Notes: generated by a model not told the origin, from the sequence alone. A stretch of 64,000 nt of DNA from Candidatus Dadabacteria bacterium (GCA_022827275.1 JAJDTG010000022.1:129455-193454); one strand, 5' to 3'. Shown: positions 2 to 21,086, counted from the stretch's first letter. Program-made: numbers and translations.

Positions 2-544
<543 letters not shown>

Positions 545-632
545 TTCGCATGTATTAACCAAGAGGCCACCATGTCTATTGCTGATTTTCAGACATAAGT
601 CTTTAATCTAGGTAATAATTTATAATTTCCAA

Positions 633-1694
633 ATGAATGATCAGAGCGAGAAAAATTCTGTGAATTTATATGATTATCTTTATGTTGATTTGGAAAAAGT
701 AATTTCTCTATACAGTCAACTAACAGGTGGTGTAGTAGAATTAATAGAAACGCAGTTGGAAAAGGGTTCTGCATTTGAACATAAAGGGAGCCTTGACTTG
801 AAATTGTTTAAATATGGTGCAGGGGGTGCAAAAGAAGAGAAAGAGCAAGACAAGATAACTGTTAAACCACATCATGCCTTATTGCAAGAATTGGAGGAAA
901 AACTTTCTTCTTCAGGCTATTTATTGGACCTAGATAGATTAGGAGATGGAGAAACATTAAAAGACCATAATGTAAGAAGTTCTCTCAAGAAAGTGTTATG
1001 TGTGAAATGTAAAGGCAGAATTGTAATTGAAGATTATGAAAGAATGAAAAGTATTGGCCAAGCTTTTCCTGAAATTGTGAAGCTAATTAGCATGAGCAAC
1101 ATAGAAGCTGTCAAAGGAACCCCTGAATATCAAGAATTTGAGGCGAAAATGAAAGAACTTGAAAATGTTGAGGGAAATAGAAATCAAAAAAGTGCAGGAA
1201 AACAAAAAGCCAAGCGACTTCAGAAAGAACTTGATGAAATGCTTGCGACTTTTTCTGATATAGACAATGTGCCTCAATGGATTCTAGATGGTCTTGGGAC
1301 ATGGATTGATACTTTCCTGCCGAATATAACAAATATTCGCGTTTACCCTTTTCCTGGTCAACATGACGAACATATATTCGGACGTTTAGACGCATCGAAC
1401 TTCACTATATCCGACTCTACTGCATTTCATTTTACTTATGGTTCTTTTCCTACTGAAGAGTTTACTATGCTTGGCATTATCACGTCCGTGCCTTTGGATG
1501 AAGAGGAAACCTTCGTGCCACTAAAGGAGTTTGAGAAGGAGGACTTAGATGATAAGGAAAGCATTGAAAATGGGTTTCGCGGCTTGTTTAAGGGTTTTGA
1601 GGGTTTCGAAGCTATGATAAGGACTTGTCGTTATCCCAGAGTTCTAGTTCATCCTATTTTGATTTATCGAGAGACTTCACCTTGCAAAACTTGA
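633..1694 (+). CDS. Hypothetical protein (353 aa), first gene of the islet; no recognisable catalytic motif
   Basis: A 353-codon ORF in AT-rich DNA is very unlikely by chance. ATG at 633 lies 6 nt after a TATAAT hexamer (621-626). Stop is 29 bp before the GTG of the next gene. Central K/E-rich predicted coiled-coil (EAKMKELENVEGNRNQKSAGKQKAKRLQKELDEM). No TM segment or signal peptide seen. Confidence 0.75.
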   Translation: MNDQSEKNSVNLYDYLYVDLEKVISLYSQLTGGVVELIETQLEKGSAFEHKGSLDLKLFKYGAGGAKEEKEQDKITVKPHHALLQELEEKLSSSGYLLDLDRLGDGETLKDHNVRSSLKKVLCVKCKGRIVIEDYERMKSIGQAFPEIVKLISMSNIEAVKGTPEYQEFEAKMKELENVEGNRNQKSAGKQKAKRLQKELDEMLATFSDIDNVPQWILDGLGTWIDTFLPNITNIRVYPFPGQHDEHIFGRLDASNFTISDSTAFHFTYGSFPTEEFTMLGIITSVPLDEEETFVPLKEFEKEDLDDKESIENGFRGLFKGFEGFEAMIRTCRYPRVLVHPILIYRETSPCKT

Positions 1695-1723
1695 TTGGAT
1701 AAATATTTAAATTTTCTTCAACC

Positions 1724-4700
1724 GTGGATACAAAAAAACCTTTTCGGGGAAGTCTTTTCTCCAACGATTTCTTAAGCCAATCTATAGTCAAACTACCCGA
1801 CTGGAAGAATCTTGATTCCGAGTCAGTAGACAGATTTTACGAATCGCTGAAGGAAATATTCAACAAGTTTCCGGTTTCGGGTAAACCTAACGAAAGCCAG
1901 ACGGAAACCGATCTGGTCTGGCCCATACTGGAATGTTTGGGCTGGATCGCGAGTCTGCGACAGCAGAATCTTGCCGTAAAAGGAAGGCAGGATGTGCCCG
2001 ACGGCCTTCTATTTGCGGACGATGCGGCCAAGGAGCGGGCTAACGGTTTTGCGGAAGAATGGAAACGCTACCAGTTCGGTCTTGCGGTAGTTGAGTGCAA
2101 ACGATGGCTTCGACCGCTCGACCGCTGGTCAGGACTCCCTGATGAGGTGACGGCACCTTCAACGCAGATACTTCGCTATCTTCGACGAGTGGATGATCTG
2201 ACTTCGGGAAAACTCAGGTGGGGCATTCTTACCAATGGCGCGAGATGGCGGCTTTACTACCAGGGCGCCCGGTCGGTTTCCGAGCAGTTTCTGGATATTG
2301 ACCTCGGAAAGATATTGAATATTTACGATCGGGACGATGATTCGCCCGTTCTTTCCGAATCCGAGCGTCGCCACTGGCTTTGCGTGTTCGTTCTGATGTT
2401 CAGGCGCGAGGCCTTTCTTCCCGGCGCTGCTGATCCGCGCACGTTTCACCAGCGCTCTCTTGATGAAAGCAAGTTCTACGAAGAACGCGTCGCGGGCAAT
2501 CTCTCGGAACTGATTTTCGGCAAGGTTTTCCCTGAACTTGCCCGCGCTTTCGCCCTTGCTTCGCCCGGGGCCCCTTTGGACCAGGTGCGCGAGGCTGTCC
2601 TGGTTTTTCTCTACAGGCTTCTTTTCATTCTCTACGCCGAGGACCGCGAGTTGCTGCCCGTGCGCGATACGCGTTACGACGACTATGCCCTGCGGGATAA
2701 AGTGCGGGGGGATGTAGGACGACGCAAGGACGAGAATGATGTTTTTTCCAAAAAAGCGTCGAGATACTGGAATGCCATTGACGATCTCTGTCTCGCTATT
2801 GATCAGGGCGATTCTTCAATAGGGCTGCCGCCATACAACGGTGGCCTTTTTGACAGGGAGAGCACCCCGCTTCTTGAAGAAATCCGGATCGGAGACCAAG
2901 TTGTCGCCGACGTGGTTGATGCCCTTTCCTTTGAACAGACGGAGCATGGACGCCGGTATATCAATTACCGCGACCTCAGCGTCCAGCAGCTCGGGTCCAT
3001 ATATGAACGTCTTCTTGAATACGAACTCGCGCGGGGTGATGGTGAAATAGTCGTTCGCCCGAACATCTTCGCGAGAAAAGAATCGGGAAGCTACTACACT
3101 CCGGACGACCTAGTCGGTTTGATAATAAAGGAGACGATTGAGCCTCTGACGCAGAGATCCATGGATGAGTTTGAGTCCAGAATCGCGGAACTCGCCGAAA
3201 GCGGATTGTCCGAAGATATGAAAATCGGACTTCTGAAGGAAACCGATCCGGCGGAAAAGCTTCTCGAACTGAAAATCTGCGACCCCGCCATGGGTTCAGG
3301 GCATTTCTTGGTCAATCTCGTGGATTTTCTTACCGACAGCGTGATTGCGGCAATGGCCGACGCCGAGGCCGCGGTGGAAAACTATATATCTCCTCTAAAC
3401 GCGCGGATTGACAGGATTCGCAACAGGATTATGGCAAACGCGCAGAAGCGCAAGTGGAGCGTTAATTTCGAGCAGCTTGACGACCGTCACGTAATCAGGC
3501 GGATGGTGCTCAAGCGTTGCGTTTACGGAGTCGACAGAAATCCCATGGCGGTTGAGCTTGCCAAGGTGTCTCTATGGCTCCATACGTTTACGCCCGGGGC
3601 TCCCTTGAGCTTCATTGATCACCACCTGCGCTGCGGAAACAGCCTGTTCGGCATGTGGGTCAGGGATGGGGTGAAAAAGGCCGAGGAGTACGGAGGGCCG
3701 CTTCTGCTTCAAAAACCCATAGCGCGGGCTATTTCGACCGCGGCTCCCATGCAGATAATTGAAGGCCTGACCGATGAGGAGATATCCGAAGCCCACCGTT
3801 CCGCCGACATCTTTGACGGGATCAAGGAAGACACGGCGCCTCTGGATGCTTTTCTCTCGGTTGTGCGTGCCTTTGACTGGCTGAACATCAGGGATCGTGA
3901 CGACAAGAGCGCTCTCTATGCTTTTTTCGAGGGCATACTCGGCGACCCTGTCGACATTTCTCTGGGAGAGTCTGATATACAAAACGGGAAAACGCAGTCG
4001 GAGCGTTTTGCGGGGATTTTTGAAAAAGCGCGGGAACTTATCGAGGAAGAACGTTTTTGCAACTGGCAGGTGATGTTTCCGGCAGTATGGTCGGAGTGGG
4101 AGAGTTGTGGACTGCAGGGGGGTTTTGACGCGGTAATAGGGAATCCGCCTTGGGACCGGGTAAAACTGCAGCAGGTCGAGTGGTTTGCAACTCGCCGTCG
4201 TGAGATTGCCTTGGCGGTCCGGGCCGCCGACCGCAAGCACATGATCGTTGAGTTGGAGGAATCAGGTGACCCGCTAGCCGAAGATTTCAATGTGGCTAAA
4301 GAACGAGCGGAGCATGCGGCCCGTGTTGCCAGAACATGCGGCGATTATCCTTTGCTTTCCAGAGGTGATTTGAATCTCTATTCTCTTTTTGTTGAACGGG
4401 CTATGACTATCGTCAAACCTGATGGGATGGTAGGCCTCCTTACTCCCTCTGGAATTGCCTCTGACAAGACTGCTGCGAAGTTTTTCAAAAAAGTGGCGAC
4501 GGAAGGCAGATTAAAAGTACTCTACGATTTTGAAAACCGACGCACGCGTTTCAAGACCACACCCTTTTTTCCGGATGTGGATAGTCGCTTTAAATTTTGT
4601 GTTTTTGTCGCAAGTCCGTTGCCGATTCCTAGTCCAACTCAATGTGCGTTTTTCTTGCAGGATGTATCCGAACTCGAAGGTCAAGATTGCTGTTTCCCTA

Positions 4701-5809
4701 TGACTGCAGAGGACTTTGCGCAAGTCAATCCAAACACAGGGACTGCGCCGGTTTTTCGGTCTCGTCGGGATGCGGGATTGACGAAGGCAATTTATGAGCG
4801 TTCGCCTGTCCTGGTTGATCGATCCAGCGGTGAGGAAGTGAAAACATGGCCCGTGAAATATGTTCGTATGTTTGATATGAGCAACGACTCTGGTTTTTTT
4901 CGTACTCGCGAGGAACTTGAGGAAAGAGAGGGGGCCTACCCAGTTGGAGGCAACAAATTTGCCAGTCAGCTGGGTGAATGGGTACCGCTCTATGTTGGCC
5001 GCATGATCCATCAATTTGACCACCGAGCGGCTTCGGTGAAAGTGAATCCGGAAAGTCTTCACAATCCGGCGTTGAGTAGAGATATAACGTTAGCACAAAA
5101 AGCAGATCCCGATTTTGTTCCCACACCACAATATTGGGTTCATGCCGATAAAGTGGTTTTTCCAAGCGGTTTAGAGTGGGCCATAGCATTTCGTGACACT
5201 GCGAGGCCAACGGATGTCAGGACGATGATTGCCACTGTCGTTCCGTTCGTCGGATTAGGGAACAAAGCTCCTATTCTAACAGCGGAGGATCTCGAAATTT
5301 ATCGTCAATTTGCATCTTGCTTCACTGCTAATCTTAATACATTGCTTCTTGACTATGTGGTGCGTCAAAAGGTGCATGGTACTAATTTAAACTGGTATAT
5401 CGTTGAACAATTGCCTGTAATTCCTGTGGATCATTATGAAGCTACCCGTTTCGGTCCGAAAACAGCCAAGGAGATCATACGGGAAGCTGTGTTGGAACTC
5501 ACGTATACCGCCCACGATATGGCACCATTTGCCCGCGACATGGGTTATGTCGACCAGAACGGAAAAATAAAACCACCATTTCTGTGGGATGAGGAACGTA
5601 GACTGAATTTACGTGCCAAACTTGACGCAGTATTTTTTCACCTTTACGGAATTACTGACCGCAACGATGTGCGCTATGTTTTTTCCACTTTTCCAATAGT
5701 GGAAGCTCAGGAAATTAAAACTTACGGCACTTACAGGTCCCGTGAACTTTGCCTTGCATATATGAATGCGCTTGAATCAGGAGATCCTGATGCGAAGATA
5801 AGTTTGTGA
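1724..5809 (+). CDS. Type IIG-like fused restriction nuclease / gamma-class N6-adenine DNA methyltransferase (Eco57I / MmeI / PglX-like architecture), 1361 aa
   Basis: N-terminus has PDGLLF...(x)...VVECKRW, a PD-(D/E)xK-like motif (2000-2101). Also LLFILYAEDRELLP, YNGGLFD, SGSYYTPDDLV, DPAMGSGHFLV (motif I, from 3281), YGVDRNPMAVELAKVSLWL and VIGNPPWDRV (motif IV, NPPW at 4142-4153). ~500-aa C-terminal region with no MTase motif, a putative target-recognition part. GTG start; the frame only opens after the TAA at 1700-1702. Confidence 0.85.
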   Translation: MDTKKPFRGSLFSNDFLSQSIVKLPDWKNLDSESVDRFYESLKEIFNKFPVSGKPNESQTETDLVWPILECLGWIASLRQQNLAVKGRQDVPDGLLFADDAAKERANGFAEEWKRYQFGLAVVECKRWLRPLDRWSGLPDEVTAPSTQILRYLRRVDDLTSGKLRWGILTNGARWRLYYQGARSVSEQFLDIDLGKILNIYDRDDDSPVLSESERRHWLCVFVLMFRREAFLPGAADPRTFHQRSLDESKFYEERVAGNLSELIFGKVFPELARAFALASPGAPLDQVREAVLVFLYRLLFILYAEDRELLPVRDTRYDDYALRDKVRGDVGRRKDENDVFSKKASRYWNAIDDLCLAIDQGDSSIGLPPYNGGLFDRESTPLLEEIRIGDQVVADVVDALSFEQTEHGRRYINYRDLSVQQLGSIYERLLEYELARGDGEIVVRPNIFARKESGSYYTPDDLVGLIIKETIEPLTQRSMDEFESRIAELAESGLSEDMKIGLLKETDPAEKLLELKICDPAMGSGHFLVNLVDFLTDSVIAAMADAEAAVENYISPLNARIDRIRNRIMANAQKRKWSVNFEQLDDRHVIRRMVLKRCVYGVDRNPMAVELAKVSLWLHTFTPGAPLSFIDHHLRCGNSLFGMWVRDGVKKAEEYGGPLLLQKPIARAISTAAPMQIIEGLTDEEISEAHRSADIFDGIKEDTAPLDAFLSVVRAFDWLNIRDRDDKSALYAFFEGILGDPVDISLGESDIQNGKTQSERFAGIFEKARELIEEERFCNWQVMFPAVWSEWESCGLQGGFDAVIGNPPWDRVKLQQVEWFATRRREIALAVRAADRKHMIVELEESGDPLAEDFNVAKERAEHAARVARTCGDYPLLSRGDLNLYSLFVERAMTIVKPDGMVGLLTPSGIASDKTAAKFFKKVATEGRLKVLYDFENRRTRFKTTPFFPDVDSRFKFCVFVASPLPIPSPTQCAFFLQDVSELEGQDCCFPMTAEDFAQVNPNTGTAPVFRSRRDAGLTKAIYERSPVLVDRSSGEEVKTWPVKYVRMFDMSNDSGFFRTREELEEREGAYPVGGNKFASQLGEWVPLYVGRMIHQFDHRAASVKVNPESLHNPALSRDITLAQKADPDFVPTPQYWVHADKVVFPSGLEWAIAFRDTARPTDVRTMIATVVPFVGLGNKAPILTAEDLEIYRQFASCFTANLNTLLLDYVVRQKVHGTNLNWYIVEQLPVIPVDHYEATRFGPKTAKEIIREAVLELTYTAHDMAPFARDMGYVDQNGKIKPPFLWDEERRLNLRAKLDAVFFHLYGITDRNDVRYVFSTFPIVEAQEIKTYGTYRSRELCLAYMNALESGDPDAKISL

Positions 5810-5861
5810 GGTATAGATTTTCTGGAAGACGATAGAGTGGTAATGACTGAACATAATAAGG

Positions 5862-8800
5862 TCAATCCACTTGATTGAACCAAGGACCCATGTTGTTGGC
5901 GGTTCTCTGACCCAGAAAGTTTTTCTCAAGCTCTTTTTCCTTTTTATTCAGAGCACGTTTTATGTTCGATCGGTTGAGTTCAACATGAATCATTTTGAGA
6001 TCAGCAAAACTGTTTGAATTTTTTGCAGTATCTTTATCTCGGGATGTATATTTATATGTATCGATGCGACGGTCTGCCGAATGTAAAAACAATGCCCACG
6101 CAGCGTAGGCTTGGGCTGGATCTGGGGCGTCAAGGAATGCTTTCCACCAGTGTTTAGCACATGCCTCAATCCATCTTTGGCGTGCTGATTTCCAACGAAG
6201 GCTAGAATGAATCGTTTTCATTTCTCCCTCTGGCCAAGCACCGACAACTGGCAATTGATTGTTTTGTGTAAAGCCTGCCAAGATAATAGCTCGACGCTGG
6301 CGCCAACTCAATGGCGATGCTTGATCTTCACTGATTAAGGCATCAATCCAGTCGGCTTTGCCGTTGTATGATGCGGCAATTACAATATCAAATAAATCAC
6401 GATCGGTATGACAATTCTTCAATTCTGTTAACTCTTCTTGTAGTGCTGTTACCTCTGGCGAATCCGGCACTCGAAAGACCATATGCAGAAGATCTTCTAC
6501 ATCAGCGGCACCATAATATCGAGTTTCTAAAATCGTACGAAGAATTCGCCACAATTTAACTCCACGTTCAGGGTTGTGGATAAGTAAAGCTTCGCAAAGT
6601 GCAAGAAATGCTCCTTCAGCCAAGAGGATACGATGTATGAATTCAACTGTTGGATTAGATAGGTCGGCCAGCCATTTTTCAACGAAGTCCGAAGCATGAC
6701 AAAGAACAGGCTCAAAGTCCCTGTAATCAAAGTCTTTTAAATAGAGAATGGCGCCTGAACTATGTGCTTTAGGCATGAGAAATTTAGCGGCTCTAATAGC
6801 TTCATTCAACTTTTTGGTTCGAAGCTCGGAGTCGAAAATTTGCCGTAAATTCTCGACTTCGTTTGAAGGTGGTCGTAGCGCAATTGAAAACGAGCCCGGC
6901 GGGGATTTTTTTTTGAACCGGTCGACTGAAATGATTGAACCCGGGTCTAATTTTTTAATATCGTTTGTAATAAGCATCTGGTCCAACTCTTTGGCTGCTA
7001 GCCTTATCTCTCTTTGATTGGATCCACGTCGGCAAGCAACTTTCAAAAGAAGCCATGGTGCCAGTCGAGCTATCAACTTGTCAAAAGAAGAAGATAGCGT
7101 TGCCTCTGTAAGTGCAAGTGTTCCATAATGATTAACCCATAAATCCTTTTTCGGGTGCCAAGACCAATTGTTATTCTCAAGTGTCTTACCAAATCGTTTG
7201 GGGTTGGAGTGGGTCAGTATATTAAACGCAAGTTTACGAAGGTTCTCCTCTTGTCTTGCACAGTTTTCGATCCATGACCATGCGTTATCACTAAGTTTAA
7301 TCTTGGAATCCAACAACAGACTGAGCAGGTTGCATTTCTGTTTATATGAACCATTGGAGTAGCGAGAAATTAATTTGTCAATATCTTCCGATGTTGGAGT
7401 TAAGAGAATTTTAGTGAAATCGCTAGAGATGTATTTCAAATCTGCCTGGATTAACGTATCAAACTGTCCCTGTGCCCGCATATCTAAGACTTCCATAAGT
7501 AAAAGTCTGTTGGCAGTAATTGTTTCTTCATCATCATTGTTACTATAGTTGCTACTCAAACGCAATTTTCGTGCTGCGGTTGCTTCGGCAGTCGCAGTAA
7601 ACACAAAATGGTTTGTTGAACTTAATGCACACCAGTACCGAGACTCTGCTGAACAGGTCTCCATGCTTCTCATTTTTTGTCGTATAATATTTTGGAGAAG
7701 GTTTGAATTGAACCGCGCGAGAACTGGTTCGAGGGATTCAAGAAGAAAATCTTCTTCGGTTCTTGAACGGTGCCGACTCAGTTTCTTGACATCTATATCG
7801 GCTATTGCTTGCTCAACTTTCTTAATGAAGCTTTTAGGTGGTTGAAAGTCAGGGTCAAGCCATAGTTCTTCTGTTCTTTCAACCCGGAATTCTGGTTTTA
7901 TTTCTGTATTGTTGAGTACCGTTTCAGCATGTCGTTTTTCAAGAGGGAATAATTCTTTGCTAGGGTTCGCAAGATAATCTTTCTCGTAGCTGAACGCATG
8001 CAAGGATTCGGGATCAATAGATGCTGCTTTATTATCGTCTTCCTCCTGTCCAGTTAGCCGAAGCAGAAGTGCAGCGATGCGAGACGGAAGGTCTGGATGA
8101 ATGTGTGACTCAGGTTTTTGGCAAAGAACTGATTCTGATAATTTACGTAAAGTTTCTGCCGTCTCGTCGGGGTCAACTTCATTAAGAAGGCAGAGCCACT
8201 TCATGTCATTCCAGATTCTGCTAGTGCTGCGTATTGCAAATTCAATAGCCGCGGCTTTGAAGACTGGCTGAATTTCTGCTAGTGGGAATCCTTCAATAAT
8301 TGAAGGGACTGTAGATCTCAAAAAACTAGGATTATGGTTGACTAGTTCAATTTCTGTTTCTAAGATGTTAGTTCGTCCTGAAGAATCGGTTCCAATCAGT
8401 TTTCTGAAGTGTTCCGAGCGCCATTTTTCACTTTCTTTGTTGGCTTTTGGGTCAAAGTCAAGGGAGACTACGCACAGCCAGAGATACGTGCGTTTGATTA
8501 TAAGCGATAGGATTTCGGTGTTTGTTCTGGGGATTGTTCTCAGTGCTCTAACGGCCCAATTCCGTGCGGACGAGTAAACTCGACTGTTTGAATGCTCAAC
8601 GGCATCAAGTAATGCGTCGGGAAGATTGGATGCTAATCTAACAAGTTCTTTGCGATGCTCGTCAGGTACATTCTGGGTTTGTAGCCATGCCGTAACAAGA
8701 ACTCCGGAAGTTAGTGATTTTTTAGGATGGTCCTGTCCCACTAGAATGGATACTGCTGCACGTAAAATCTCTGCTTTTTTATCAAGACCTGAAATTGGGT

Positions 8801-10520
8801 CGAACCATTCTGTCAATTTGCTCTCTAATTTTTCAAACGTTGGTGAGTCTGCTTGATAAAGGTTGTCTAAAAGCAGAAGTCCTAAGGAATGTGCAAGAAT
8901 GGAAGGTATAATTTCAAAATTCCCTGACTCGTTACGTGTAGTGAAACGGCCGTCAATTATTTCACTTAGTCGTTGATAAACTTGATTTTCACTAAGATCT
9001 GAGCGTTCTAAAGTTTGGCCAAGAGACCTAGACGAAAACTCTCGTATGCCGCTCCTATGCTCTTGTGCGATTTCCCTTAGCCATTCTTTCCACTCGTTTT
9101 CGCTGAATGATTTCCCTGCCCGTTCACCCAAAGAATCTCGCCCATATTCCCAGAGTAGTCTGTGTATTGTTAACTCGCCTGGTTCAAGCAACTTTTCCCG
9201 CAATCTGATTACAAGCCTGAAGAGACGAGGATTCCGTGCGAGTTCAATAACATCGGGATGCAAATCGGCTCGGGTTAATTCTTCAAGTTTGAGCATCTGA
9301 TCAAGCTCTCCTTCAGGTTCTATATCGAAAGGTCCAACGTCAACATGTTTTGGTTTAAAGACAAGGTCACGAAATTTCGATAATCTCTCCTCAAAATAAT
9401 GATTACGCGTGCTGATAATCACTCTCACTCGCCCTATGAATTTTTCTTTCTGCAAAACTTTCAGAAGTTTTAACCATTTAACGGAAGGTTCTTGGTTTAA
9501 TCCGTCAAAGAAGAGGGTTAAAACAGGTCCTTCATCCATTGGACGTTTAAGCAGCCTATTTAGGCGGTGTAACCAATGTTTTGAATCTTGTACTTGGGTA
9601 ATTTCGTAGAGGCAATTAGCCAGTAATTCTTTCACGGTTGTTTCGGAAACATCGCCAGTTGGCATTGAGGATGAAGCTATAGTCAAAATGATTGGTTGAT
9701 TGTGCTTGTTATCAATTATCCAGTGGAGCGTTGCCCATGTTTTCCCCACACCCTCATATCCGACTACTGTGACCGGAGTTTCTTTTTCCGGGTTTTGCCA
9801 CCATGAAGTCAGTTCATTATGAACAGAGATACGTTTAATTTTTTTGGCTTCGGTTCCGCCAGCAGTGTTCTGTCCGAGTTCAGCGGTTGCTTCTTGTGGA
9901 GAGTTCCAGATCTTTTCGAGTTTTTCGTGAGATGCTTCTCTTAATATTTCAAATCCCAAGCACCAAGATTGCAAATCACGGTTTAGCTTTTCAATAGTGT
10001 CTCCTAAAACTGGTCTAAGCTTCCGTGCTAATACTCCAGCTTCCTTCGAGAACTTCGACTCAACTATGTCAGGGGCATAAGCGCACAATCCAGCAAGCGG
10101 TGTCAACTCATTACCCTTTGGCCAATCAAGAATTAATATAGGTACACCTGTTTCTTTGCCTTTAAGAAATAGTGAGTGTCGTATTTGCTCTGAGACACTA
10201 CCTGTTGTAATTAACACCCAAGCTTCTAGAGCTTCATCTCGGTCTAATGCTTGGTCAATTTCCCCGCGTAATTCTCTTTCATTAAGTTTCCTGGAATCAC
10301 TGTATTTTTTGCATTCTAAGCGAAACCGTCTACCTTGTTGTCCTGCCGGACCAGCATCTGCGCCATGCTGAAAACCTTTACTGGCTACAGTTATAGGTAT
10401 ATCAAGAAGGTGGCTTAGCAGAGAGGATACGAGACATTCGAATTTGAACGCATCTCCACCATTTTGAAGTTCACGCTTAAGTTCTTCCTGAAGATTTATA
10501 TTTTTTCTGCTAAGAGGCAT
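5862..10520 (-). CDS. STAND/NACHT-type P-loop NTPase with N-terminal Mrr-like PD-(D/E)xK nuclease domain and ~1150-aa helical C-terminal region (Avs / bNACHT-like antiviral candidate), 1552 aa
   Basis: N-terminus has GFQHGADAG...FRLECKKY, a D...ExK Mrr_cat-like pattern (aa 53-71, 10308-10364). Walker A is GYEGVGKT (aa 254-261, 9738-9761). Walker B is VLTLFFDGLNQE (aa ~333-344), followed by RVIISTRNHYF (NACHT-like hhhTSR). The rest is long, helix-rich and Leu-rich with no enzyme motif. Confidence 0.8.
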   Translation of the reverse strand: MPLSRKNINLQEELKRELQNGGDAFKFECLVSSLLSHLLDIPITVASKGFQHGADAGPAGQQGRRFRLECKKYSDSRKLNERELRGEIDQALDRDEALEAWVLITTGSVSEQIRHSLFLKGKETGVPILILDWPKGNELTPLAGLCAYAPDIVESKFSKEAGVLARKLRPVLGDTIEKLNRDLQSWCLGFEILREASHEKLEKIWNSPQEATAELGQNTAGGTEAKKIKRISVHNELTSWWQNPEKETPVTVVGYEGVGKTWATLHWIIDNKHNQPIILTIASSSMPTGDVSETTVKELLANCLYEITQVQDSKHWLHRLNRLLKRPMDEGPVLTLFFDGLNQEPSVKWLKLLKVLQKEKFIGRVRVIISTRNHYFEERLSKFRDLVFKPKHVDVGPFDIEPEGELDQMLKLEELTRADLHPDVIELARNPRLFRLVIRLREKLLEPGELTIHRLLWEYGRDSLGERAGKSFSENEWKEWLREIAQEHRSGIREFSSRSLGQTLERSDLSENQVYQRLSEIIDGRFTTRNESGNFEIIPSILAHSLGLLLLDNLYQADSPTFEKLESKLTEWFDPISGLDKKAEILRAAVSILVGQDHPKKSLTSGVLVTAWLQTQNVPDEHRKELVRLASNLPDALLDAVEHSNSRVYSSARNWAVRALRTIPRTNTEILSLIIKRTYLWLCVVSLDFDPKANKESEKWRSEHFRKLIGTDSSGRTNILETEIELVNHNPSFLRSTVPSIIEGFPLAEIQPVFKAAAIEFAIRSTSRIWNDMKWLCLLNEVDPDETAETLRKLSESVLCQKPESHIHPDLPSRIAALLLRLTGQEEDDNKAASIDPESLHAFSYEKDYLANPSKELFPLEKRHAETVLNNTEIKPEFRVERTEELWLDPDFQPPKSFIKKVEQAIADIDVKKLSRHRSRTEEDFLLESLEPVLARFNSNLLQNIIRQKMRSMETCSAESRYWCALSSTNHFVFTATAEATAARKLRLSSNYSNNDDEETITANRLLLMEVLDMRAQGQFDTLIQADLKYISSDFTKILLTPTSEDIDKLISRYSNGSYKQKCNLLSLLLDSKIKLSDNAWSWIENCARQEENLRKLAFNILTHSNPKRFGKTLENNNWSWHPKKDLWVNHYGTLALTEATLSSSFDKLIARLAPWLLLKVACRRGSNQREIRLAAKELDQMLITNDIKKLDPGSIISVDRFKKKSPPGSFSIALRPPSNEVENLRQIFDSELRTKKLNEAIRAAKFLMPKAHSSGAILYLKDFDYRDFEPVLCHASDFVEKWLADLSNPTVEFIHRILLAEGAFLALCEALLIHNPERGVKLWRILRTILETRYYGAADVEDLLHMVFRVPDSPEVTALQEELTELKNCHTDRDLFDIVIAASYNGKADWIDALISEDQASPLSWRQRRAIILAGFTQNNQLPVVGAWPEGEMKTIHSSLRWKSARQRWIEACAKHWWKAFLDAPDPAQAYAAWALFLHSADRRIDTYKYTSRDKDTAKNSNSFADLKMIHVELNRSNIKRALNKKEKELEKNFLGQRTANNMGPWFNQVD

Positions 10521-10757
10521 GGCAGTGTGGTAATTCTATTTACAGCGGAGTTCATAGAGGAATTATTGCTTTTTTCTCAGTTGAATTATGATAATTAAAC
10601 CGAACAGTTATTGCGAGTTGGAAAATTAGTAACCACGAGATATTTTATTCTTGATTTTTTTTGCGAAATTAGTACCCACTTAGAGGCGAAGCGTATTCTC
10701 GGGGAATTTCCATCTAACTACTGCAGAATTTACAAAGTAACCACGAAGATTCCCATG

Positions 10758-10786
10758 TTGCCTGTCAGCTTGTTATTAAGTATATA
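10758..10786 (+). promoter_or_regulatory. Candidate sigma70-type promoter of carB (TTGCCT-17 nt-TATATA)
   Basis: TTGCCT at 10758-10763, 17-nt spacer, TATATA at 10781-10786, about 30 nt upstream of the carB ATG. Sequence pattern only. Confidence 0.35.
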
Positions 10787-10816
10787 TTTGCAACCTGTTG
10801 CAAGCTTTTCCGTTCC

Positions 10817-13800
10817 ATGCCCAAGCGAACTGACATAAAAACCATAATGGTCATCGGTTCCGGTCCGATAGTCATAGGACAGGCCTGCGAGTTCGATTAT
10901 TCGGGCACTCAGGCGTGCAAGGTACTGAAAGAAGAGGGCTACAGGGTGGTTCTGGTAAACAGCAACCCGGCCACCATAATGACCGACCCGGACTTTGCCG
11001 ACAAGACTTACATAGAGCCGCTCGTTCCCGAAATACTGGAAAAAATAATAAAGAAGGAAAAGCCCGACGCCCTTCTGCCCACAATAGGCGGACAGACGGC
11101 CCTTAACCTCGCAGTTTCGCTTGCCGAATCAGGCGCGCTCGAGCGCCACGGCGTGGAACTCATAGGCGCAAAAATCCCTGCCATAAATAAGGCGGAGAAC
11201 AGGGATCTTTTCAAAAAAGCCATAGCTGACATAGGTCTTGAGGTGCCGAGAAGCGGCATCGCGCATAACATGGAAGAGGCCTGGGACGTCGTGGAGGAAA
11301 TAGGGTTCCCGGTCATCATACGGCCTTCTTTTACCCTCGGGGGAACCGGCGGAAGCGTCGCCTACAACAGGGAGGAATTCCAGGAGTTCGCCAAGGCGGG
11401 AATCGAAAGCTCTCCGGCAGACGAGATACTCATAGAGGAATCCATAGTGGGGTGGAAGGAGTTTGAGTACGAGGTGATGCGGGACCACATGGATAACGTC
11501 GTCATAATCTGCTCCATAGAGAATTTCGACGCCATGGGCGTTCACACGGGAGACAGCATAACTGTTGCTCCCGCGCAGACCCTTACCGACAAGGAATACC
11601 AGCATATGCGCGACGCGTCCATAGCGATAATAAGGGAAATCGGCGTTGAAACCGGCGGCTCTAACATCCAGTTTGCCGTTAACCCAAAAGACGGGAGGAT
11701 GATGGTAATAGAGATGAACCCGAGGGTTTCGCGAAGCTCAGCGCTTGCCTCAAAAGCCACCGGGTTTCCAATCGCCAAGATAGCCGCGAAGCTTGCGGTC
11801 GGCTATTCGCTTGATGAGATCTCAAACGACATAACGAAATATACCCCCGCGTCTTTCGAACCGACGATAGATTACGTTGTGGTGAAAATACCCAGATTCA
11901 CTTTTGAGAAATTTCCGCAGACAAGCCCGACCCTCACCACACAGATGAAATCCGTGGGGGAAGCCATGTCCATGGGGAGAACCTTCAAGGAGTCACTGCA
12001 GAAAGCGATGAGATCTCTTGAGATAGATTCCTACGGTTTCGAGAAGATGTCTGATGACCCCGAGGAAGTGAGGGAGAAGCTCAGGGTTCCTTCTCCGCGG
12101 CGGCTCTGGTACATAGCCGATGCGTTTCGGCTGGGCATGGAGTTGGAGGAAATCTACTCGATTTCTCATGTGGACCCTTGGTTTCTTCGGAACATAAAGC
12201 AGATTGTCGATTTCGAGTCGGATATTGCGAAGGACGGGCTTAGCCACGAGACCATACTCCAGGCCAAGCGTTACGGTTTTTCGGACATCGAGATCGCCAG
12301 GATTCTTTCCACGGAAGAAAGGGAAGTGAGGGATTTCCGCCTGCGCGAGGGAATCGAACCTGCTTTTAAGATGGTTGATACCTGCGCTGCTGAGTTCGAG
12401 GCCTACACGCCTTATCTCTACTCGACTTTCGAGAGCGAAAGCGAAGCGCTTCCCACGGACAGGAAAAAAGTGGTGATACTCGGCGGGGGGCCGAACCGCA
12501 TAGGCCAGGGCATAGAGTTTGACTACTGCTGTGTGCATGCGTCTTTTGCGCTCCGGGAAGAAGGGTACGAGGCCATTATGGTTAACTGCAACCCCGAGAC
12601 CGTGAGCACGGATTACGACACCTCGGACAGGCTTTATTTCGAACCGCTTACGCTTGAAGACACTCTGGCTCTTATAAGAAGGGAAGATCCTTGGGGAGTC
12701 ATAGTTCACCTTGGAGGCCAGACCCCACTTCGCCTGGCACTCGCGCTTGAAGAGCAGGGGGTGAGAATAATAGGAACTTCCCCAGAGAGCATAGACCTTG
12801 CCGAGGACAGAGACAGGTTCAGGAAACTCGTTTCGGATCTGGGACTTCTTCAGCCCCAAAGCGATACCGCTAGAAGCGAGGGGGAAGCCATTGGCATAGC
12901 CCGCGAAATAGGATATCCGGTCATGGTCCGCCCGTCCTACGTTCTGGGCGGCCGTGCCATGGAAATAGTCTACGACGAGGAATCTCTTCGGACCTATATA
13001 CGGGAAGCCGCAAGCGTTTCGCCGAATCACCCGATACTGATAGACAAGTTTCTGAAGGATGCGAATGAAATCGATGTGGACGCGGTTTGCGACGGGAAAA
13101 CCGTTGTTGTGGGAGGGGTGCTTGAGCACATAGAGGAAGCGGGGGTTCATTCCGGAGACAGCGCGGCGATTCTGCCGCCGTTTTCGATGGAACCTGAAAT
13201 TGTCGAGGAAATAAAATCCCAGACGAAAAAACTCGCCCTCTCTCTGGATGTAAAAGGACTTGTTAACATCCAGTTTGCGGTAAAGGACGGGAAGGTCTAC
13301 ATAATCGAGGTAAATCCAAGAGCCAGCCGCACCGTTCCTTTCGTGAGCAAGGCCATAGGGGTTCAATTGGCCAAAATAGGGACCAAGATTATGACGGGAA
13401 AATCTCTTGAGGAACTCGGCTATACGGAGGAAATCGTCCCTGAGCACTACTGCGTAAAGGAATCGGTCTTTCCTTTCGTCAAGTTCCCGGAGGTTGACAC
13501 GATTCTGGGCCCGGAGATGAAATCGACCGGCGAGGTAATGGGAATTGCTCCCGACCTTGATCAGGCGTTCGCCAAATCACAGATCGCGGCCGGCAACAGC
13601 CTTCCTTCAGACGGCGTGGCCTTCATAAGCGTGAAAGACGAGGATAAGTCCGACAAGATGCTTGATATAGCCCGGAGGCTCAGCGATATAGGTTTTGATA
13701 TAATGGCTACCGGGGGCACATCTGAATTTCTCAATAAAAATGGTATATTTTCCCGAACGGTGAACAAGGTTAAGCAGGGCCGGCCCCACATAGTCGATCA

Positions 13801-14005
13801 CCTTAAAAACGGTGAGGTGCAGTTGGTTATAAATACCACTTTTGGGAAAAAGGAAATCGCGCAGTCATATTCGATAAGAAGAACCGCGCTTGTAAACAAT
13901 GTTCCTTATTTCACCACCCTTGCCGGTGCGGTCGCCGGAGTCGGTGCTATCGAGGCCTTGGTGAGAATCGGTCTCGACGTAAGGGCTTTGCAAAGCTACT
14001 ATTAA
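10817..14005 (+). CDS. carB: Carbamoyl-phosphate synthase large subunit
   Basis: 1062 aa. [35 protein letters not shown]..., duplicated ATP-grasp halves (second half [23 protein letters not shown]) and a C-terminal MGS-like domain. Confidence 0.97.
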
Positions 14006-15661: not shown

Positions 15662-16294
15662 ATGTTTAGCGGTATAGTTGAAGACATTGGAGCTGTGGGG
15701 GCGCTTGAAAAAAAGGACAAAGGCGTTCTTTTAAGAATCGGGGTTCGGAAGATTGATGCCGGGGAACTGGATCTGGGAGAGAGCGTAGCCGTAAACGGCG
15801 TGTGCCTTACGGTGGTTTCTGTGGAAGACGGGAGTTTTTCCGTTGACGCATCCCACGAAACGCTTTCCAGGACAAACCTTTCTGGCCTCCGGACGGGAAG
15901 CGGAGTAAATCTTGAGAGATCTCTTCGGGTCGGAGACAGGATGGGCGGGCATATAGTTACGGGCCATGTGGACGGAGTCGGGGTAGTTCAGTCCATTACT
16001 CCGGTAGGAGAGTCCAGGGTTTTTTCCTTCTCGATTTCCGCAGTTCTTGCGAAGTATGTGGTCGAGAAGGGCTCGGTCGCCGTTGATGGCGTAAGTCTCA
16101 CCGTCAATTCGGTGAAGGACACCGAGTTTTCGGTGAACATAATTCCCTACACGCTTCGGGAGACAACTTTTTCTGAATTTCGCCGGGGCAGTGAAGTTAA
16201 CATCGAGTGCGACATAATAGGCAAGTACGTCGAGAAAATGCTTTCCGGCGCAAACGTCTCCGCCGAGGGTTCTGCCGTCGGGAGAAAATTGTAG
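15662..16294 (+). CDS. ribE: Riboflavin synthase (alpha chain)
   Basis: MFSGIVEDIGAV... with two internally repeated lumazine-binding halves (NGVCLTV / DGVSLTV). ATG overlaps the lspA stop (TGAATG). Confidence 0.92.
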   Translation: MFSGIVEDIGAVGALEKKDKGVLLRIGVRKIDAGELDLGESVAVNGVCLTVVSVEDGSFSVDASHETLSRTNLSGLRTGSGVNLERSLRVGDRMGGHIVTGHVDGVGVVQSITPVGESRVFSFSISAVLAKYVVEKGSVAVDGVSLTVNSVKDTEFSVNIIPYTLRETTFSEFRRGSEVNIECDIIGKYVEKMLSGANVSAEGSAVGRKL

Positions 16295-16300
16295 GTTGAC

Positions 16301-16813
16301 TTGAGCGAAAAACGACATATTTTCCTTACGGGGTTTATGGGAGCGGGTAAAACAAGCGTCGGCAAGGAACTTTCCAGAGAACTGCAGATGGATTTCTATG
16401 ATCTTGACGGTGAGGTGGAACGGGCCGAAGGTCTTTCTGTAACCGGGATATTTGAAGCGGGAGGGGAGGAGAGTTTCAGGCAGAAGGAGACAGAGATGCT
16501 CGCCGCTCTTTCGCAGAAAACATCCCCGGCGGTGATCTCAACGGGGGGAGGTGCGGTTCTGCGACGACAGAACCGCGAGATAATGAATGCTTCGGGCAAG
16601 GTCTTCTATCTGCGGGCGGATGTCGATACCCTTTGGGACAGGGTAAGACGCGGGAAGGGAAGGCCGCTTCTTGAGGTCAAGGATCCGCGTGCCGAGTTCC
16701 ATGAGATCTTCATGAGAAGAAAGGATATTTACGAACTCTCGCCACATGTTGTTTTTACGGATGATATTAGTGTCTCTGAAGTTGCTGATAAAATAATCGG
16801 AATGCTTGAATGA
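16301..16813 (+). CDS. aroK: Shikimate kinase
   Basis: 170 aa. P-loop GFMGAGKTSVGKELS and STGGGAV motif. TTG start. Confidence 0.88.
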   Translation: MSEKRHIFLTGFMGAGKTSVGKELSRELQMDFYDLDGEVERAEGLSVTGIFEAGGEESFRQKETEMLAALSQKTSPAVISTGGGAVLRRQNREIMNASGKVFYLRADVDTLWDRVRRGKGRPLLEVKDPRAEFHEIFMRRKDIYELSPHVVFTDDISVSEVADKIIGMLE

Positions 16814-16830
16814 AGTTGGAGGCTTTGACT

Positions 16831-18279
16831 ATGAAGAAAACCGGTTTCTTGTTTTTTGCTGCTTGTCTTTTGCTTGTGGGTTCTCTTTCGTGCGCTAAGG
16901 TTGAGGAAGACGAAGAAGGCTCTGGATTTCTCTCGAGCGAAAATGTCCCGGAACTTCTCTCTTCTTCCGGGTCTTCGAAAAATTTTCCTTCCCTTGCGGG
17001 TCTTGTCGAGAAACAAAAACATTCTGTCGTGAACATAAGCACCACAAGTGTAGTAAAACGTGGAAAAGTGTTCCCTGATTTTGGCGAAGGGGACCCTTTC
17101 GAGGAGTTCTTCAAGAGGTTTCTTCCGAACGACCGGGATCGGGAGTTCAGAAAAAAGGGCCTGGGATCCGGGTTCATAGTAAGCAAAGACGGCTACATAG
17201 TTACCAACAACCATGTGATCAGCAGGGCGGAGGATATACAGGTCGTTCTCTACGACGGGTCGAGGTATACGGCCGAGATTGTGGGGCAGGACGCGAAAAC
17301 GGATCTCGCTGTCCTGAAGATAAAGCCTGAAAAGAAGCTGAAGCCTGTTGTTTTCGGAGATTCGGACAAGCTTAGAATCGGCGATTGGGTCATGGCGATC
17401 GGAAATCCTTTCGGACTCGGTTACACCGTAACGGTCGGAATAGTAAGCGCGAAGGGTAGGTCTCTGGGTCTCGGAGCCTACGATGATTTCATTCAGACCG
17501 ATGCGTCCCTTAACCCTGGAAACAGCGGAGGTCCGCTTTTCAACCTCGGAGGGGATGTGGTTGGTGTTAACACCGCGATAGCGGCCAGAGGACAGGGAAT
17601 AGGTTTTTCTATACCAACCAACATGGCCAGGGGGGTCATATCCCAGCTCATGGAAAAAGGCAAGGTGGTAAGGGGGTGGCTGGGAGTCGTTATTCAGCCT
17701 ATAACGCAGGAGATAGCCGAGAGTATGGGGCATAAGAGCACCGACGGGGCTCTTATATCTGATATAAGCCCGGGAAGCCCCGCGGAGAAAGCGGGACTGC
17801 AGAGGGGAGACGTGGTAGTGAAATTTGACGGAGAACCTATAAAGGAGTTTACATCTTTATCCAAACTCGTGGGAATGAAAGCTCCAGGTACTTCCTCTAA
17901 AATTACGATTCTCCGCGACGGGAAAAGCAAGGAGATTTCCGTTGTTCTCGGTAAGGTGCCGGATGAAGAGACTCCTGCCGAGTCCCAGCAGGACGAAGAT
18001 ATTGAACTAAGCGATATTACCCCGGATATCGCCGCACGGTTTGGCGTTGAGGATAAAGCGGGGGTTCTGGTTACGAACGTAAACCGCGCCAGCTTGGCGT
18101 GGGAGGCGGGATTCCGTCCGGGGGATGTGATACTCGAGGTTGACAAGAATCGCGTGGTAAACCTCGGGGACTATAACAAGATCGTAAGTGGCCTGAAGCC
18201 CGGGAAGCAGTATCTTTTTCTGATAAAAAGACGTAAGAACACGATTTACATCGGCTACGCACCCAAAAACAAACAGTAA
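16831..18279 (+). CDS. htrA: Periplasmic serine endoprotease DegP/HtrA family (trypsin domain + 2 PDZ)
   Basis: GSGFIVSKDGYIVTNNHV (His), DLAVLKI (Asp), GNSGGPL (Ser), then two PDZ-like segments. ATG at 16831 follows GGAGG (16818-16822) and gives signal peptide MKKTGFLFFAACLLLVGSLSC. The ORF track start at 16810 is an upstream in-frame ATG. Confidence 0.93.
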   Translation: MKKTGFLFFAACLLLVGSLSCAKVEEDEEGSGFLSSENVPELLSSSGSSKNFPSLAGLVEKQKHSVVNISTTSVVKRGKVFPDFGEGDPFEEFFKRFLPNDRDREFRKKGLGSGFIVSKDGYIVTNNHVISRAEDIQVVLYDGSRYTAEIVGQDAKTDLAVLKIKPEKKLKPVVFGDSDKLRIGDWVMAIGNPFGLGYTVTVGIVSAKGRSLGLGAYDDFIQTDASLNPGNSGGPLFNLGGDVVGVNTAIAARGQGIGFSIPTNMARGVISQLMEKGKVVRGWLGVVIQPITQEIAESMGHKSTDGALISDISPGSPAEKAGLQRGDVVVKFDGEPIKEFTSLSKLVGMKAPGTSSKITILRDGKSKEISVVLGKVPDEETPAESQQDEDIELSDITPDIAARFGVEDKAGVLVTNVNRASLAWEAGFRPGDVILEVDKNRVVNLGDYNKIVSGLKPGKQYLFLIKRRKNTIYIGYAPKNKQ

Positions 18280-18296
18280 CTGAGGACTCTCGGTGA

Positions 18297-18728
18297 TTAC
18301 TCTCCGGGAATGATTTTCCTTCGGAACTCCTCCGGGATCCGGACGGTTTTTCTCTCTTTGTAGTCGAAAAACACGAGAGAAGTCTTGACCTTGGCGACTT
18401 CCTTGCCGCTTTTTTCGTTCACTAGTGCGTAGATGAGCTCAAGAAAATGGTTGCCATACTCGCCGATGCCGATGCTTATTTCCATTACGTCTCCGTAAAA
18501 CGCTTCCGAACTGTAGGTGATTCCAACATCTCCCATTATGATTCCCACTCCCTCTATGTCGGCTTCGGTGTAGCCGTGTGTTGCTAGGAACCTTACACGG
18601 GCCTCGTGCGCAAGGGTTAACACCGAGTCGTGTCCAAGATGAGAACCGTAATTTATGTCGTCTATTCTTATCGGAATTTGGGTTGAAAAGACGAATTTGC
18701 TCGGTAGATCTATTTTTATTCTGGCCAT
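18297..18728 (-). CDS. Hotdog-fold acyl-CoA thioesterase (4HBT/YbgC-like)
   Basis: 143 aa. IRIDDINYGSHLGHDSVLTLAHEARVRFL pattern typical of 4HBT-type thioesterases. Confidence 0.7.
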   Translation of the reverse strand: MARIKIDLPSKFVFSTQIPIRIDDINYGSHLGHDSVLTLAHEARVRFLATHGYTEADIEGVGIIMGDVGITYSSEAFYGDVMEISIGIGEYGNHFLELIYALVNEKSGKEVAKVKTSLVFFDYKERKTVRIPEEFRRKIIPGE

Positions 18729-18860
18729 TTTCGCGGGGTTTCTCTCTGAATATATCTGTATTTTCGAGGCTATAAAAGAATTGTTTGCTTTTTACTTTTC
18801 AGGGGTTATAGTCATGCCTCAATAATTGTTCCAACAAATTTTTCTAGGAGGCAGGATCAG

Positions 18861-19082
18861 ATGGAAGAAAGGACAGAAAAGGAGCATGTAAGTAACCACG
18901 TTGATATTGAATCCAAAAGATTTTTCTTTGACGTTAAGGAAAACCACAAGGGTCAATACCTTAGGATTACCGAATTAAGCGGCGGACGCTCAAGCATAGT
19001 TGTTCCATTTGAAGGAATAGAGCAGTTCAGGGACAAACTGGTCGAAACGATAAAAGAATCCCTCGAGTTAGTCGGAAGCTAG
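18861..19082 (+). CDS. Small PUR-alpha-like nucleic-acid-binding protein (DUF3276-type)
   Basis: 73 aa. ESKRFFFDVKENHKGQYLRITELSGGRSSIVVPFEGIEQFRDKL resembles a single PUR repeat. GGAGG SD upstream. Confidence 0.6.
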   Translation: MEERTEKEHVSNHVDIESKRFFFDVKENHKGQYLRITELSGGRSSIVVPFEGIEQFRDKLVETIKESLELVGS

Positions 19083-19135
19083 AGAATTCCCAAGAGTTTT
19101 AATCTCTCCCCATTTCGGCACAAGCTTTAAGCTCT

Positions 19136-20407: not shown

Positions 20408-20589
20408 GAGGTCTTAAAGAGTATTTATAATAATATACCGGAGAGTTTTTGTTATGGAAGTTCCGGGCGAAGGCTTTTTCCCTTGAGATATCTTCCAAAA
20501 AAGTTATAAATCTAGAACGGCCAGCCGGCAACTAAAGATTTTTTCGGCGTGCAATTCGCCGTAACTCATCGAAACAGCAGGTTTTTTCA

Positions 20590-20928
20590 ATGGCAATTTA
20601 CATATTACTCAGCAGGCTTACTCCCGAAGGCAGAAAAACCGTAAAGGAACGACCCGGGAGAATAAAGGAAGTTGACGAGGAGCTTGAAGACATAGGCGTC
20701 AGGGTTATTGAGCAGTATGCGACTCTGGGCAGATATGATTTTGTAAACATAGTGGAGGCGCCCGATAACGAGACCATAGGGAAGGTCTCGGTTGACCTCT
20801 GCTCAAGGGGGACAGTCGAGTTGGTAACTCTTCCGGCGGTCTCGGTCGAGTCTTTGGTTGAATCACTTAACAGGGTGAGAGCTGAAAAGATACCCCCAAT
20901 ACCATCTGGGGAAGATGAGGATGTTTAA
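20590..20928 (+). CDS. GYD-domain protein
   Basis: 112 aa. MAIYILLSRLTPEGRKTVKE...LGRYDFVNIVEAPDNETIGKVSVDL matches the GYD family pattern. Confidence 0.7.
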   Translation: MAIYILLSRLTPEGRKTVKERPGRIKEVDEELEDIGVRVIEQYATLGRYDFVNIVEAPDNETIGKVSVDLCSRGTVELVTLPAVSVESLVESLNRVRAEKIPPIPSGEDEDV

Positions 20929-21079: not shown

Positions 21080-21086
21080 AGTATTA

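Follow-up and report, generated by a model that had tools for sequence, protein, structure and literature searches.

What fills the interval between thiC and carB in a Candidatus Dadabacteria genome, and does its content amount to one new anti-phage system or to several unrelated ones? The interval (545-10816) lies in a window of 64,000 nucleotides (nt), the whole stretch of DNA analysed (GCA_022827275.1, JAJDTG010000022.1:129455-193454), and holds three genes, here called A, B and C. An initial annotation, made from the sequence alone, had taken it for an integrase-less defence islet and had proposed A and B as an undescribed two-gene system, with C as either an independent neighbour or a third component. 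Comparison with related loci favours another arrangement, namely a defence hotspot filled here by three independent single-gene modules, a reading given a probability of about 0.78. The islet is fairly ordinary and not a new multi-gene system, and a tempting false lead, that of a new restriction-modification enzyme with a dedicated partner, is thereby removed. The genes concerned are as follows.

83-544, plus strand: 3' end of thiC
633-1694, plus strand: gene A, 353 amino acids (aa), a single DUF6414 domain, 36.9% GC
1724-5809, plus strand: gene B, 1361 aa from a GTG start, predicted single-chain Type IIG restriction-modification enzyme
5862-10520, minus strand: gene C, 1552 aa, predicted Avs4-like STAND protein with nuclease, NTPase and helical sensor, 42.3% GC
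10817-14005, plus strand: carB

The open reading frame (ORF) map of the window places all five where the initial annotation had put them, with A, B and C as the only ORFs between thiC and carB. The intergenic gaps of 88, 29, 52 and 296 nt leave no space for an integrase or transposase ORF, and the sole tRNA or Rfam match of the 64-kb window is a tRNA-Asn at 50589. Neither direct nor inverted repeats beyond chance flank the interval. By ORF map, tRNA and Rfam scans and repeat search, then, the slot has no tRNA, integrase ORF, transposase ORF or attachment-site (att)-like repeat, as had been proposed for the first three.

The slot and its changing cargo

The comparison set consists of seven distinct related Ca. 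Dadabacteria loci (L001, L003/4, L065/66, L005, L037, L006 and L007). The closest relatives of the window are Ca. Dadabacteria genomes and sponge metagenomes, such as a JGI Ircinia sample with a 98%-identical A, and the host is probably a sponge-associated Candidatus Dadabacteria. Across these relatives the flanks are nearly constant, CarB being 96% identical (98% over the 381 aa compared for L001), the ThiC C-terminus 94-97% and GreA 94-98%, while the cargo is 83-97% identical for A, 75-84% for B and 71-82% for C. On the left, homology among all relatives ends at the thiC stop codon (542-544); on the right, L001 can again be aligned with the other relatives from ATRTTGCCTGYCAG...GTTATTAAGTATATATTTGCAAC onward, about 65 nt before the carB ATG. 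The variable slot runs from 545, directly after the thiC stop, to about 10750, and its edges can be described as three features.

545..632, plus strand: left junction and leader of A, from alignment of the thiC-downstream regions, with a promoter-like site at 590-619
10521..10750, minus strand: upstream region of C, from alignment of the carB-upstream regions
10751..10816, plus strand: right junction, the carB leader of about 65 nt, kept in all relatives regardless of cargo

The 88 nt 3' of thiC are common only to A-carrying loci. The promoter-like site within them (590-619) comes from a scan that was not above chance overall, promoter and terminator scans of the slot both having returned the level of shuffled sequence. 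The region upstream of C is kept in all C-bearing relatives and is missing from L001, which has no C, so that it moves together with the gene. Between these edges the content differs from locus to locus.

Window: A, B, C
L003/4: A, B, PD-Lambda-4, a gene resembling endonuclease IV (EndoIV-like), C, then carB; B appears split, and PD-Lambda-4 is split
L065/66: A, B, PD-Lambda-4, the locus ending within PD-Lambda-4
L005 and L037: B, C in each
L006: YopA-like gene, B, C, the YopA-like gene taking the place of A
L007: IetA, IetS, HsdM-like methylase, C
L001: A, Type I hsdR/S/M, PDC-M19B/A, EndoIV-like gene, carB, with neither B nor C

IetAS, PD-Lambda-4, a Type I restriction-modification system and PDC-M19 share one slot between flanks that are 94-98% identical, which is the pattern of a defence hotspot and bears out the proposal of an integrase-less islet. 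Nor are A, B and C a conserved core of the thiC-carB interval, a prospect that the initial annotation had raised against its own reading, for the trio is not fixed among the seven relatives compared. In its conserved flanks, its precise junctions and the different known systems that succeed one another in the same place, the slot resembles hotspots flanked by core genes, but it differs from them in having no integrase, tRNA, transposase or flanking repeat. Because integrase, tRNA and att-like repeat are all missing, the cargo is most likely exchanged by homologous recombination, which would take place in the conserved flanking genes thiC and carB. The locus thus provides, in a sponge-symbiont phylum that has been little studied, a defence hotspot of the recombination type with precise boundaries, one that can be mined for further cargo.

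Several details of the relatives deserve record. In L003, and also in L004, B appears to be represented by two ORFs of 676 and 645 aa and PD-Lambda-4 by pieces of 1004 and 247 aa (19770-23846 and 15907-19661). The split of B is present in two independent assemblies of the sample, and the split genes are either defence genes in decay or assembly errors of the metagenome-assembled genomes. An ORF-poor stretch of 4 kb after B in L065/66, considered as a decayed C, proved to hold an intact PD-Lambda-4 gene that continues beyond the locus end. L005 (18978-19229) and L007 (about 20320-20870) share a gene of about 83 aa (MDNVFTVEARWYEDMWVAASD...) directly 3' of thiC; loci with A do not have it, and both of its carriers are without A. 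Two versions of the slot (L001 13227-13844; L003 15100-15750) contain a gene, about 205-216 aa long, that weakly matches Pfam Phage_T4_End_IV; it has no match in PADLOC and may be a further mobile defence or accessory module.

Base composition and translation signals

The initial annotation had judged the region richer in AT than its flanks. This holds for A (GC 36.9%, with 29% GC at third codon positions, GC3), for C (GC 42.3%, GC3 36%) and for the last third of B (GC 46%, GC3 41%; the 46% refers to 4499-5809), but not for the first two thirds of B, whose GC of 53% (GC3 59%) is comparable to the 52% of carB (GC3 62%). A and C are of foreign base composition. The reported lack of a Shine-Dalgarno sequence in A, B and C is real; carB has none either, and the absence is consequently a trait of the host and not a property of the islet.

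Independent assortment of A, B and C

The three genes assort independently of one another, and outside Dadabacteria none of them has a conserved partner. B occurs without A in L005, L006 and L037 and in three inspected plasmid contexts; A occurs without B in L001, where it is 97-98% identical; and C occurs without B in L007. Wider searches gave the same picture. When all ORFs within 8-10 kb were clustered around 47 loci for A and 60 for C, no conserved partner of either gene was recovered, only lineage-specific synteny. C homologues were compared in 58 genomic loci, two of them from the Dadabacteria clade. At none of the 56 others does A lie within 10 kb of C, and B-like sequence is present at just one (L059, a weak methyltransferase-domain match of 48 bits); the neighbour families of C at these loci show no recurrence beyond synteny at the level of the genus. 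Around A, 45 metagenomic loci yielded no recurrent neighbour, and B was found only in the two that are Dadabacteria-like.

These distributions bear directly on the proposal of a two-gene A-B system in which a Type IIG/PglX-like enzyme has a dedicated partner. The two genes do share a strand, the 29 nt that separate them contain no terminator-like site, and their adjacency is kept in three variants of the slot (the window, L003/4 and L065/66). Yet each is found without the other, B in the three related loci and the plasmids just named and A in L001 and in loci of other phyla; an unrelated YopA-like gene occupies the position of A in L006; and the annotated contexts of A show no methyltransferase beside it. 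Given independent assortment, the A-B system is not supported, and it is regarded as very improbable.

A pairing of B with C, in which a restriction enzyme and a STAND nuclease would be inherited as a functional unit, fares no better and is, if anything, slightly less probable still. The two genes stand next to each other in convergent orientation in the window and in L005, L006 and L037, but this adjacency is accounted for by common ancestry within one clade. C lacks B in L007, PD-Lambda-4 and other genes separate the two in L003/4, C is missing from all three inspected plasmid contexts of B, and the C loci outside Dadabacteria contain no close homologue of B, the weak match in L059 being the nearest approach. 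Of the two roles that had been offered for C, that of independent neighbour stands, whereas that of third component falls, C being accompanied within 10 kb at the loci outside Dadabacteria by neither A nor a close homologue of B, and by no conserved neighbour at all.

PADLOC scans of the flanking ORFs show defence genes near both families. They name LmuB, mad2/mad3, Type IIG, Dsr1, DRT, GajB and PDC-M03 near C, and mad3, NsnB, AriA, HEC-01A, AbiLi, ThsA, DpdF and a CBASS cyclase near A.

Gene B, a Type IIG enzyme

B is very probably an intact single-chain Type IIG restriction-modification enzyme, to judge from its profile matches and domain order. Residues 39-1329 align with positions 42-1239 of the 1250 in the PADLOC REase_MTase_IIG profile PDLC03613 (E=2e-69), and Pfam returns Eco57I (E=6e-23) together with weak MmeI_N, MmeI_hel and MmeI_Mtase matches in the expected order. 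Three regions can be delimited.

1901..2323, plus strand: N-terminal PD-(D/E)xK nuclease region, about aa 60-200, with P92-D93 and E124-C-K126 and a weak MmeI_N match at aa 147-195
3071..4168, plus strand: gamma-class N6-adenine methyltransferase domain, about aa 450-815, from Pfam Eco57I and N6_Mtase and PADLOC segment 450-811
4571..5473, plus strand: variable C-terminal region, about aa 950-1250, from the drop in sliding identity

The PD...ECK, YYTP, DPAMGSG and NPPW motifs that had been noted are read in the translation, and P92-D93, E124-C-K126, Y458-T-P460, DPAMGSG (520-526) and NPPW (807-810) are invariant in eight homologues of 58-84% identity. In the C-terminal region, by contrast with these fixed residues, sliding identity is only 0.54-0.64 within the Dadabacteria copies and 0.27-0.44 in comparison with those on plasmids, with peaks of divergence at aa 951-1000 and 1101-1250; the region is presumed from this pattern to be the target-recognition domain.

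Homologues that cover at least 80% of B are found in 113 plasmid records, the closest (58-65% identical) on alphaproteobacterial plasmids, and full-length plasmid homologues are annotated as Eco57I restriction-modification methylase or as restriction endonuclease. B stands by itself in each of the three plasmid contexts that were inspected, its neighbours varying between an ATPase, a PLD protein and a RES-Xre pair. The likeness to Type IIG enzymes of the MmeI/Eco57I kind is one of both architecture and habit: PD-ExK nuclease, helical spacer, gamma-class N6-adenine methyltransferase and variable C-terminus lie in one chain, the PADLOC match spans the protein, and the plasmid homologues are stand-alone. 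With its 1361 aa, B exceeds both MmeI and Eco57I in length, and no sequence-level match to a solved structure was found. B is a new member of Type IIG.

The description of B as "Type IIG/PglX-like" keeps its first half by virtue of the full-length PADLOC match and loses the second. Against the NCBIfam model of BREX-1 PglX B scores 34.8 bits, the cut-off being 500, and the BREX-2, -5 and -6 models are likewise far below cut-off; the likeness to BREX PglX and to DISARM DrmMI is confined to the methyltransferase core (PADLOC DrmMI segment 450-811). The only other ORFs of at least 700 aa in the window are CarB, AlaRS and a UvrA-like protein, so that the partners which BREX (PglZ, BrxC, BrxL) or DISARM (DrmA, DrmB, DrmC/DrmD) would demand can have no place there.

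Gene C, an Avs4-like STAND protein

The architecture of C was read from motifs, family comparison and a structural model, and consists of the following parts.

10116..10520, minus strand: N-terminal Mrr-type PD-(D/E)xK nuclease domain, aa 1-135, with D55 and E69-C-K71
9291..9788, minus strand: STAND/NACHT-like P-loop NTPase, aa about 245-410, with Walker A G254-x2-G-x-GKT261, Walker B D339 and T371-R372
5865..8903, minus strand: all-helical repeat region, aa about 540-1552, with a hypervariable linker at aa about 1201-1250

The D...ECK, GYEGVGKT, LFFDGLNQ and IISTR motifs of the initial annotation are present in the translation, and their key residues are conserved in homologues. Thus D55 and E69 of the nuclease are invariant and K71 is at least 90% conserved in 18 diverse homologues. 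In sets of 14-26 homologues C70 is invariant too, and GxxGxGKT (254-261), D339 (in LFFDGLNQ) and T371-R372 (in IISTR) of the NTPase are invariant or nearly so. C itself has no Pfam (E<=0.1), PADLOC, NCBIfam, PHROG or PDB-sequence match, and profiles of the whole family and of each domain found nothing meaningful among PDB sequences. The domain assignment is reached through relatives and structure instead. Pfam Mrr_cat gives weak matches in six of 18 family members (best E=0.007), one NCBI homologue bears the name "restriction endonuclease", and a Sphingobium plasmid protein annotated "NACHT domain-containing" is homologous to C over nearly the whole length (24% identity, E=6e-48); its Pfam NACHT domain (PF05729, aa 259-420, 26.6 bits against a cut-off of 26.7) aligns with aa 250-409 of C. 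An AlphaFold model of aa 1-1200, with a mean predicted local distance difference test (pLDDT) score of 74, is all-helical from about aa 540, and Foldseek places Avs4 bound to portal (8dgf) at the top of its matches (E=6.5e-9, probability 1.0), followed by SAMD9, Avs3, NLRC4 and the AVAST5 filament, among repeat proteins of the HEAT/ARM/TPR kind. Foldseek, the Mrr_cat matches and the NACHT-bearing homologue together uphold the view of C as an Mrr-type nuclease joined to a NACHT-like STAND NTPase, and the helical region (aa about 540-1552) is presumed to be the ligand sensor.

The comparison with Avs4 is one of layout. C has the same three parts, nearly the same length, and conserved Walker A, Walker B, sensor and D...ExK residues, but its sequence identity to Avs4 is only 12%, it matches no PADLOC model, Pfam NACHT or nSTAND family or PDB sequence by profile search, and it is unusually conserved over its whole length across phyla. 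On the strength of the model, C is taken to represent the Avs4 architecture in a separate sequence family that Pfam, PADLOC and NCBIfam miss. Since the predicted template modelling (pTM) score (0.41) and the Foldseek TM-scores (about 0.16) are low, the likeness is architectural and not rigid-body. A survey of 2026 (PMC13581612) recognised 589 STAND clades, of which 198 were linked to defence, along with no fewer than 90 Avs families, and C is probably a member of one of these groups.

The family comprises 458 homologues, hundreds of them at least 50% identical over the full length, from Dadabacteria, Latescibacterota, Gemmatimonadota, Nitrospinota, Verrucomicrobiota and several proteobacterial classes. 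Such conservation invites the view that C is a resident cellular factor, for instance a DNA-repair or regulatory STAND protein, and that the defence slot is limited to the part of the interval nearest thiC. C adjoins carB in six of the seven relatives and has its own conserved upstream region, its identity is at least 50% over the full length across phyla, and non-defence STAND clades are common (PMC13581612). On the other side, L001 is without C, the gene diverges about fivefold faster than its flanks do, and its GC is foreign; its distribution across phyla is patchy and includes a megaplasmid copy bracketed by IS66 elements; and its effector is an Mrr-type nuclease in which the catalytic residues are conserved, with defence genes often nearby. 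A resident role is, on balance, quite unlikely, and C is judged with some confidence, lower than that placed in the assignment of B, to be an Avs-like abortive-infection nuclease. That the protein is unusually conserved along all 1,550 residues is a hint that its trigger, whether it comes from phage or from host, is highly conserved as well.

Two plasmid relatives of C and a repeat near the gene were also noted. On an Azospirillum oryzae megaplasmid (L117, NZ_CP054617, 125-15345) a C homologue of 52% identity adjoins a 1735-aa nSTAND1-like gene, and the pair is bracketed on both sides by copies of IS66 transposase/TnpB, an arrangement that looks like a composite-transposon-like mobile pair of STAND genes. 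On a Sphingobium yanoikuyae plasmid (L116, NZ_CP060127, 3411-12345) a distant relative of 1512 aa is flanked by a VapBC toxin-antitoxin pair on one side and an AAA ATPase + RloB pair on the other, with a tyrosine recombinase and an ADP-ribosyltransferase nearby; this locus is a plasmid-borne defence cluster. In the window, an imperfect 19-nt direct repeat (TTGGAAAATTAGTAACCAC / TTGCGAAATTAGTACCCAC; 10618-10636 and 10661-10679, 43 nt apart) sits in the divergent C-carB intergenic region, where relatives align over part of it only, and might be an operator for C.

Gene A, a solitary DUF6414 protein

A had been called an orphan with no motif that could be placed. It matches Pfam DUF6414 (PF19952) end to end, residues 12-345 aligning with the whole profile (1-283 of 283; E=5e-23), and it has hundreds of homologues, so that neither description can be maintained. 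A word-indexed search found 361 of them, 50-98% identical, in Gammaproteobacteria, Campylobacterota, Desulfobacterota, Spirochaetes and others, relatives of 50-80% identity occurring in many phyla, and a profile search recovered 527 cluster representatives at 50% identity from the 1.84 billion representatives searched. Among the 150 matches listed, nearly all are about 340-360 aa or shorter fragments, and the five longest family matches carry DUF6414 alone, with no fused domain. Most homologues begin at MNLYDY, which is equivalent to the GTG at 660; the ATG at 633 adds nine residues found only in Dadabacteria copies, and the true start of A may therefore be the GTG.

What the protein does is harder to read. 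A has no recognisable catalytic motif, no PADLOC family at E<=0.1 and no NCBIfam match. Its AlphaFold model is weak (pLDDT 65.7), Foldseek found no match in PDB (best E=1.5) or BFVD (best E=0.12), and a PDB sequence-profile search returned nothing. The annotated contexts differ from genus to genus: a PcfJ-domain gene and unknown genes in Thalassolituus, housekeeping genes in Sulfuricurvum, a PhdYeFM/YafO toxin-antitoxin pair in Vibrio and Rap1a/Imm11-like genes in Xanthomonas, with hsdR and glyoxalase-like genes among further neighbours. In none of the contexts annotated for these four genera does a ClpB-like gene or a methyltransferase lie beside A.

The absence of a ClpB-like gene matters because of Dodola, which a review describes as a DUF6414 protein with a ClpB-related protein (10.1101/2024.10.26.620412) and which is a two-gene system active against phage SPP1 by an unknown mechanism (PMC11514479). 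The text of the Millman 2022 preprint mentions neither Dodola nor DUF6414. A resembles the system in belonging to DUF6414 and in lying often among defence genes; it differs in being solitary, with no ClpB-like or recurrent neighbour in about 50 loci, and in matching no PADLOC model, hence no DolA. PADLOC 2.0 is assumed here to contain models for Dodola. With the defining second gene and a profile match both missing, A is not filed as Dodola.

A could instead be an accessory gene of another kind that hitch-hikes in variable regions: a toxin or addiction module, for example, or an anti-defence factor or a gene of a mobile element. It has no partner, recognisable fold or catalytic motif, some homologues lie beside toxin-antitoxin, immunity-protein or housekeeping genes, and PHROG 9699 matches its N-terminus. 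Set against this are the family reported for Dodola (10.1101/2024.10.26.620412) and the many defence genes among the neighbours of A, and tblastn found no match to A in INPHARED (50,697 phage records) or PLSDB (72,556 plasmid records), which argues against a phage or plasmid gene. The accessory reading is considered unlikely, although less so than a resident role for C. Since A is without a fold or motif and some of its homologues are found in a housekeeping context, it is family name and association that suggest a role in defence, and such a role is put forward tentatively, at somewhat under even odds.

Weighing the hotspot reading

A number of points weigh against a hotspot of three independent defence modules. 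Every function of A, B and C is a prediction. The neighbour scans with PADLOC are qualitative, naming families but giving neither a hit fraction nor a background rate. A has neither fold nor motif assigned, and some of its homologues, as in Sulfuricurvum, keep company with housekeeping genes. C stands beside carB in most relatives and is conserved over its whole length across phyla, which is less typical of fast-evolving immune sensors, and the pTM and TM-scores of its model are low. On the other side stand the variability of the slot between nearly constant flanks, independent assortment, the conserved catalytic residues of B and C and the defence-rich neighbourhoods, and the hotspot reading is preferred.

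If it is correct, the three modules would act separately. The variable C-terminal region of B would read a DNA motif, its NPPW domain would N6-methylate adenine in host DNA, and its N-terminal PD-ExK nuclease would cut incoming DNA that is unmethylated, as is standard for Type IIG enzymes. The long helical C-terminus of C, following the paradigm of Avs3/Avs4, would bind a phage protein, whereupon the NACHT-like NTPase would oligomerise in an ATP-dependent manner and bring the Mrr-type nuclease domains together; degradation of DNA by the nuclease would then abort the infection. A, if it is active in defence, would act alone, with no ClpB-like Dodola partner.

The novelty that remains is modest, for such hotspots are established, as are Type IIG enzymes and sensors of the Avs type, and no concept is overturned. 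Two widespread and strongly conserved single-gene families are nevertheless flagged, the solitary DUF6414 proteins, which bear only a DUF label, and the Avs4-like STAND nucleases, which profiles miss. It is conceivable, but somewhat doubtful, that A or C or both are founders of uncharacterised single-gene anti-phage families that work by a new trigger or mechanism; A may be a solitary DUF6414 protein, 50-80% conserved across phyla, that acts without the ClpB-like partner by which Dodola is defined.

Other variable positions

A second variable spot lies near the slot in L066 (765-3332) and in L065 (401-2083), where a 560-aa gene stands between tsaD and Dabb-domain genes. In L066 the spot also has a 209-aa helix-turn-helix-like gene, and L005 has no insert there. 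The N-terminus of the 560-aa protein may resemble that of DUF262/GmrSD-type proteins. Elsewhere in the window, a gene for a 389-aa AAA_14/DUF4143 ATPase (50676-51845, minus strand) begins 12 nt after the tRNA-Asn (50589-50664), amid housekeeping genes (UvrA-like, SHMT, AlaRS), and could be a small insertion at that tRNA.

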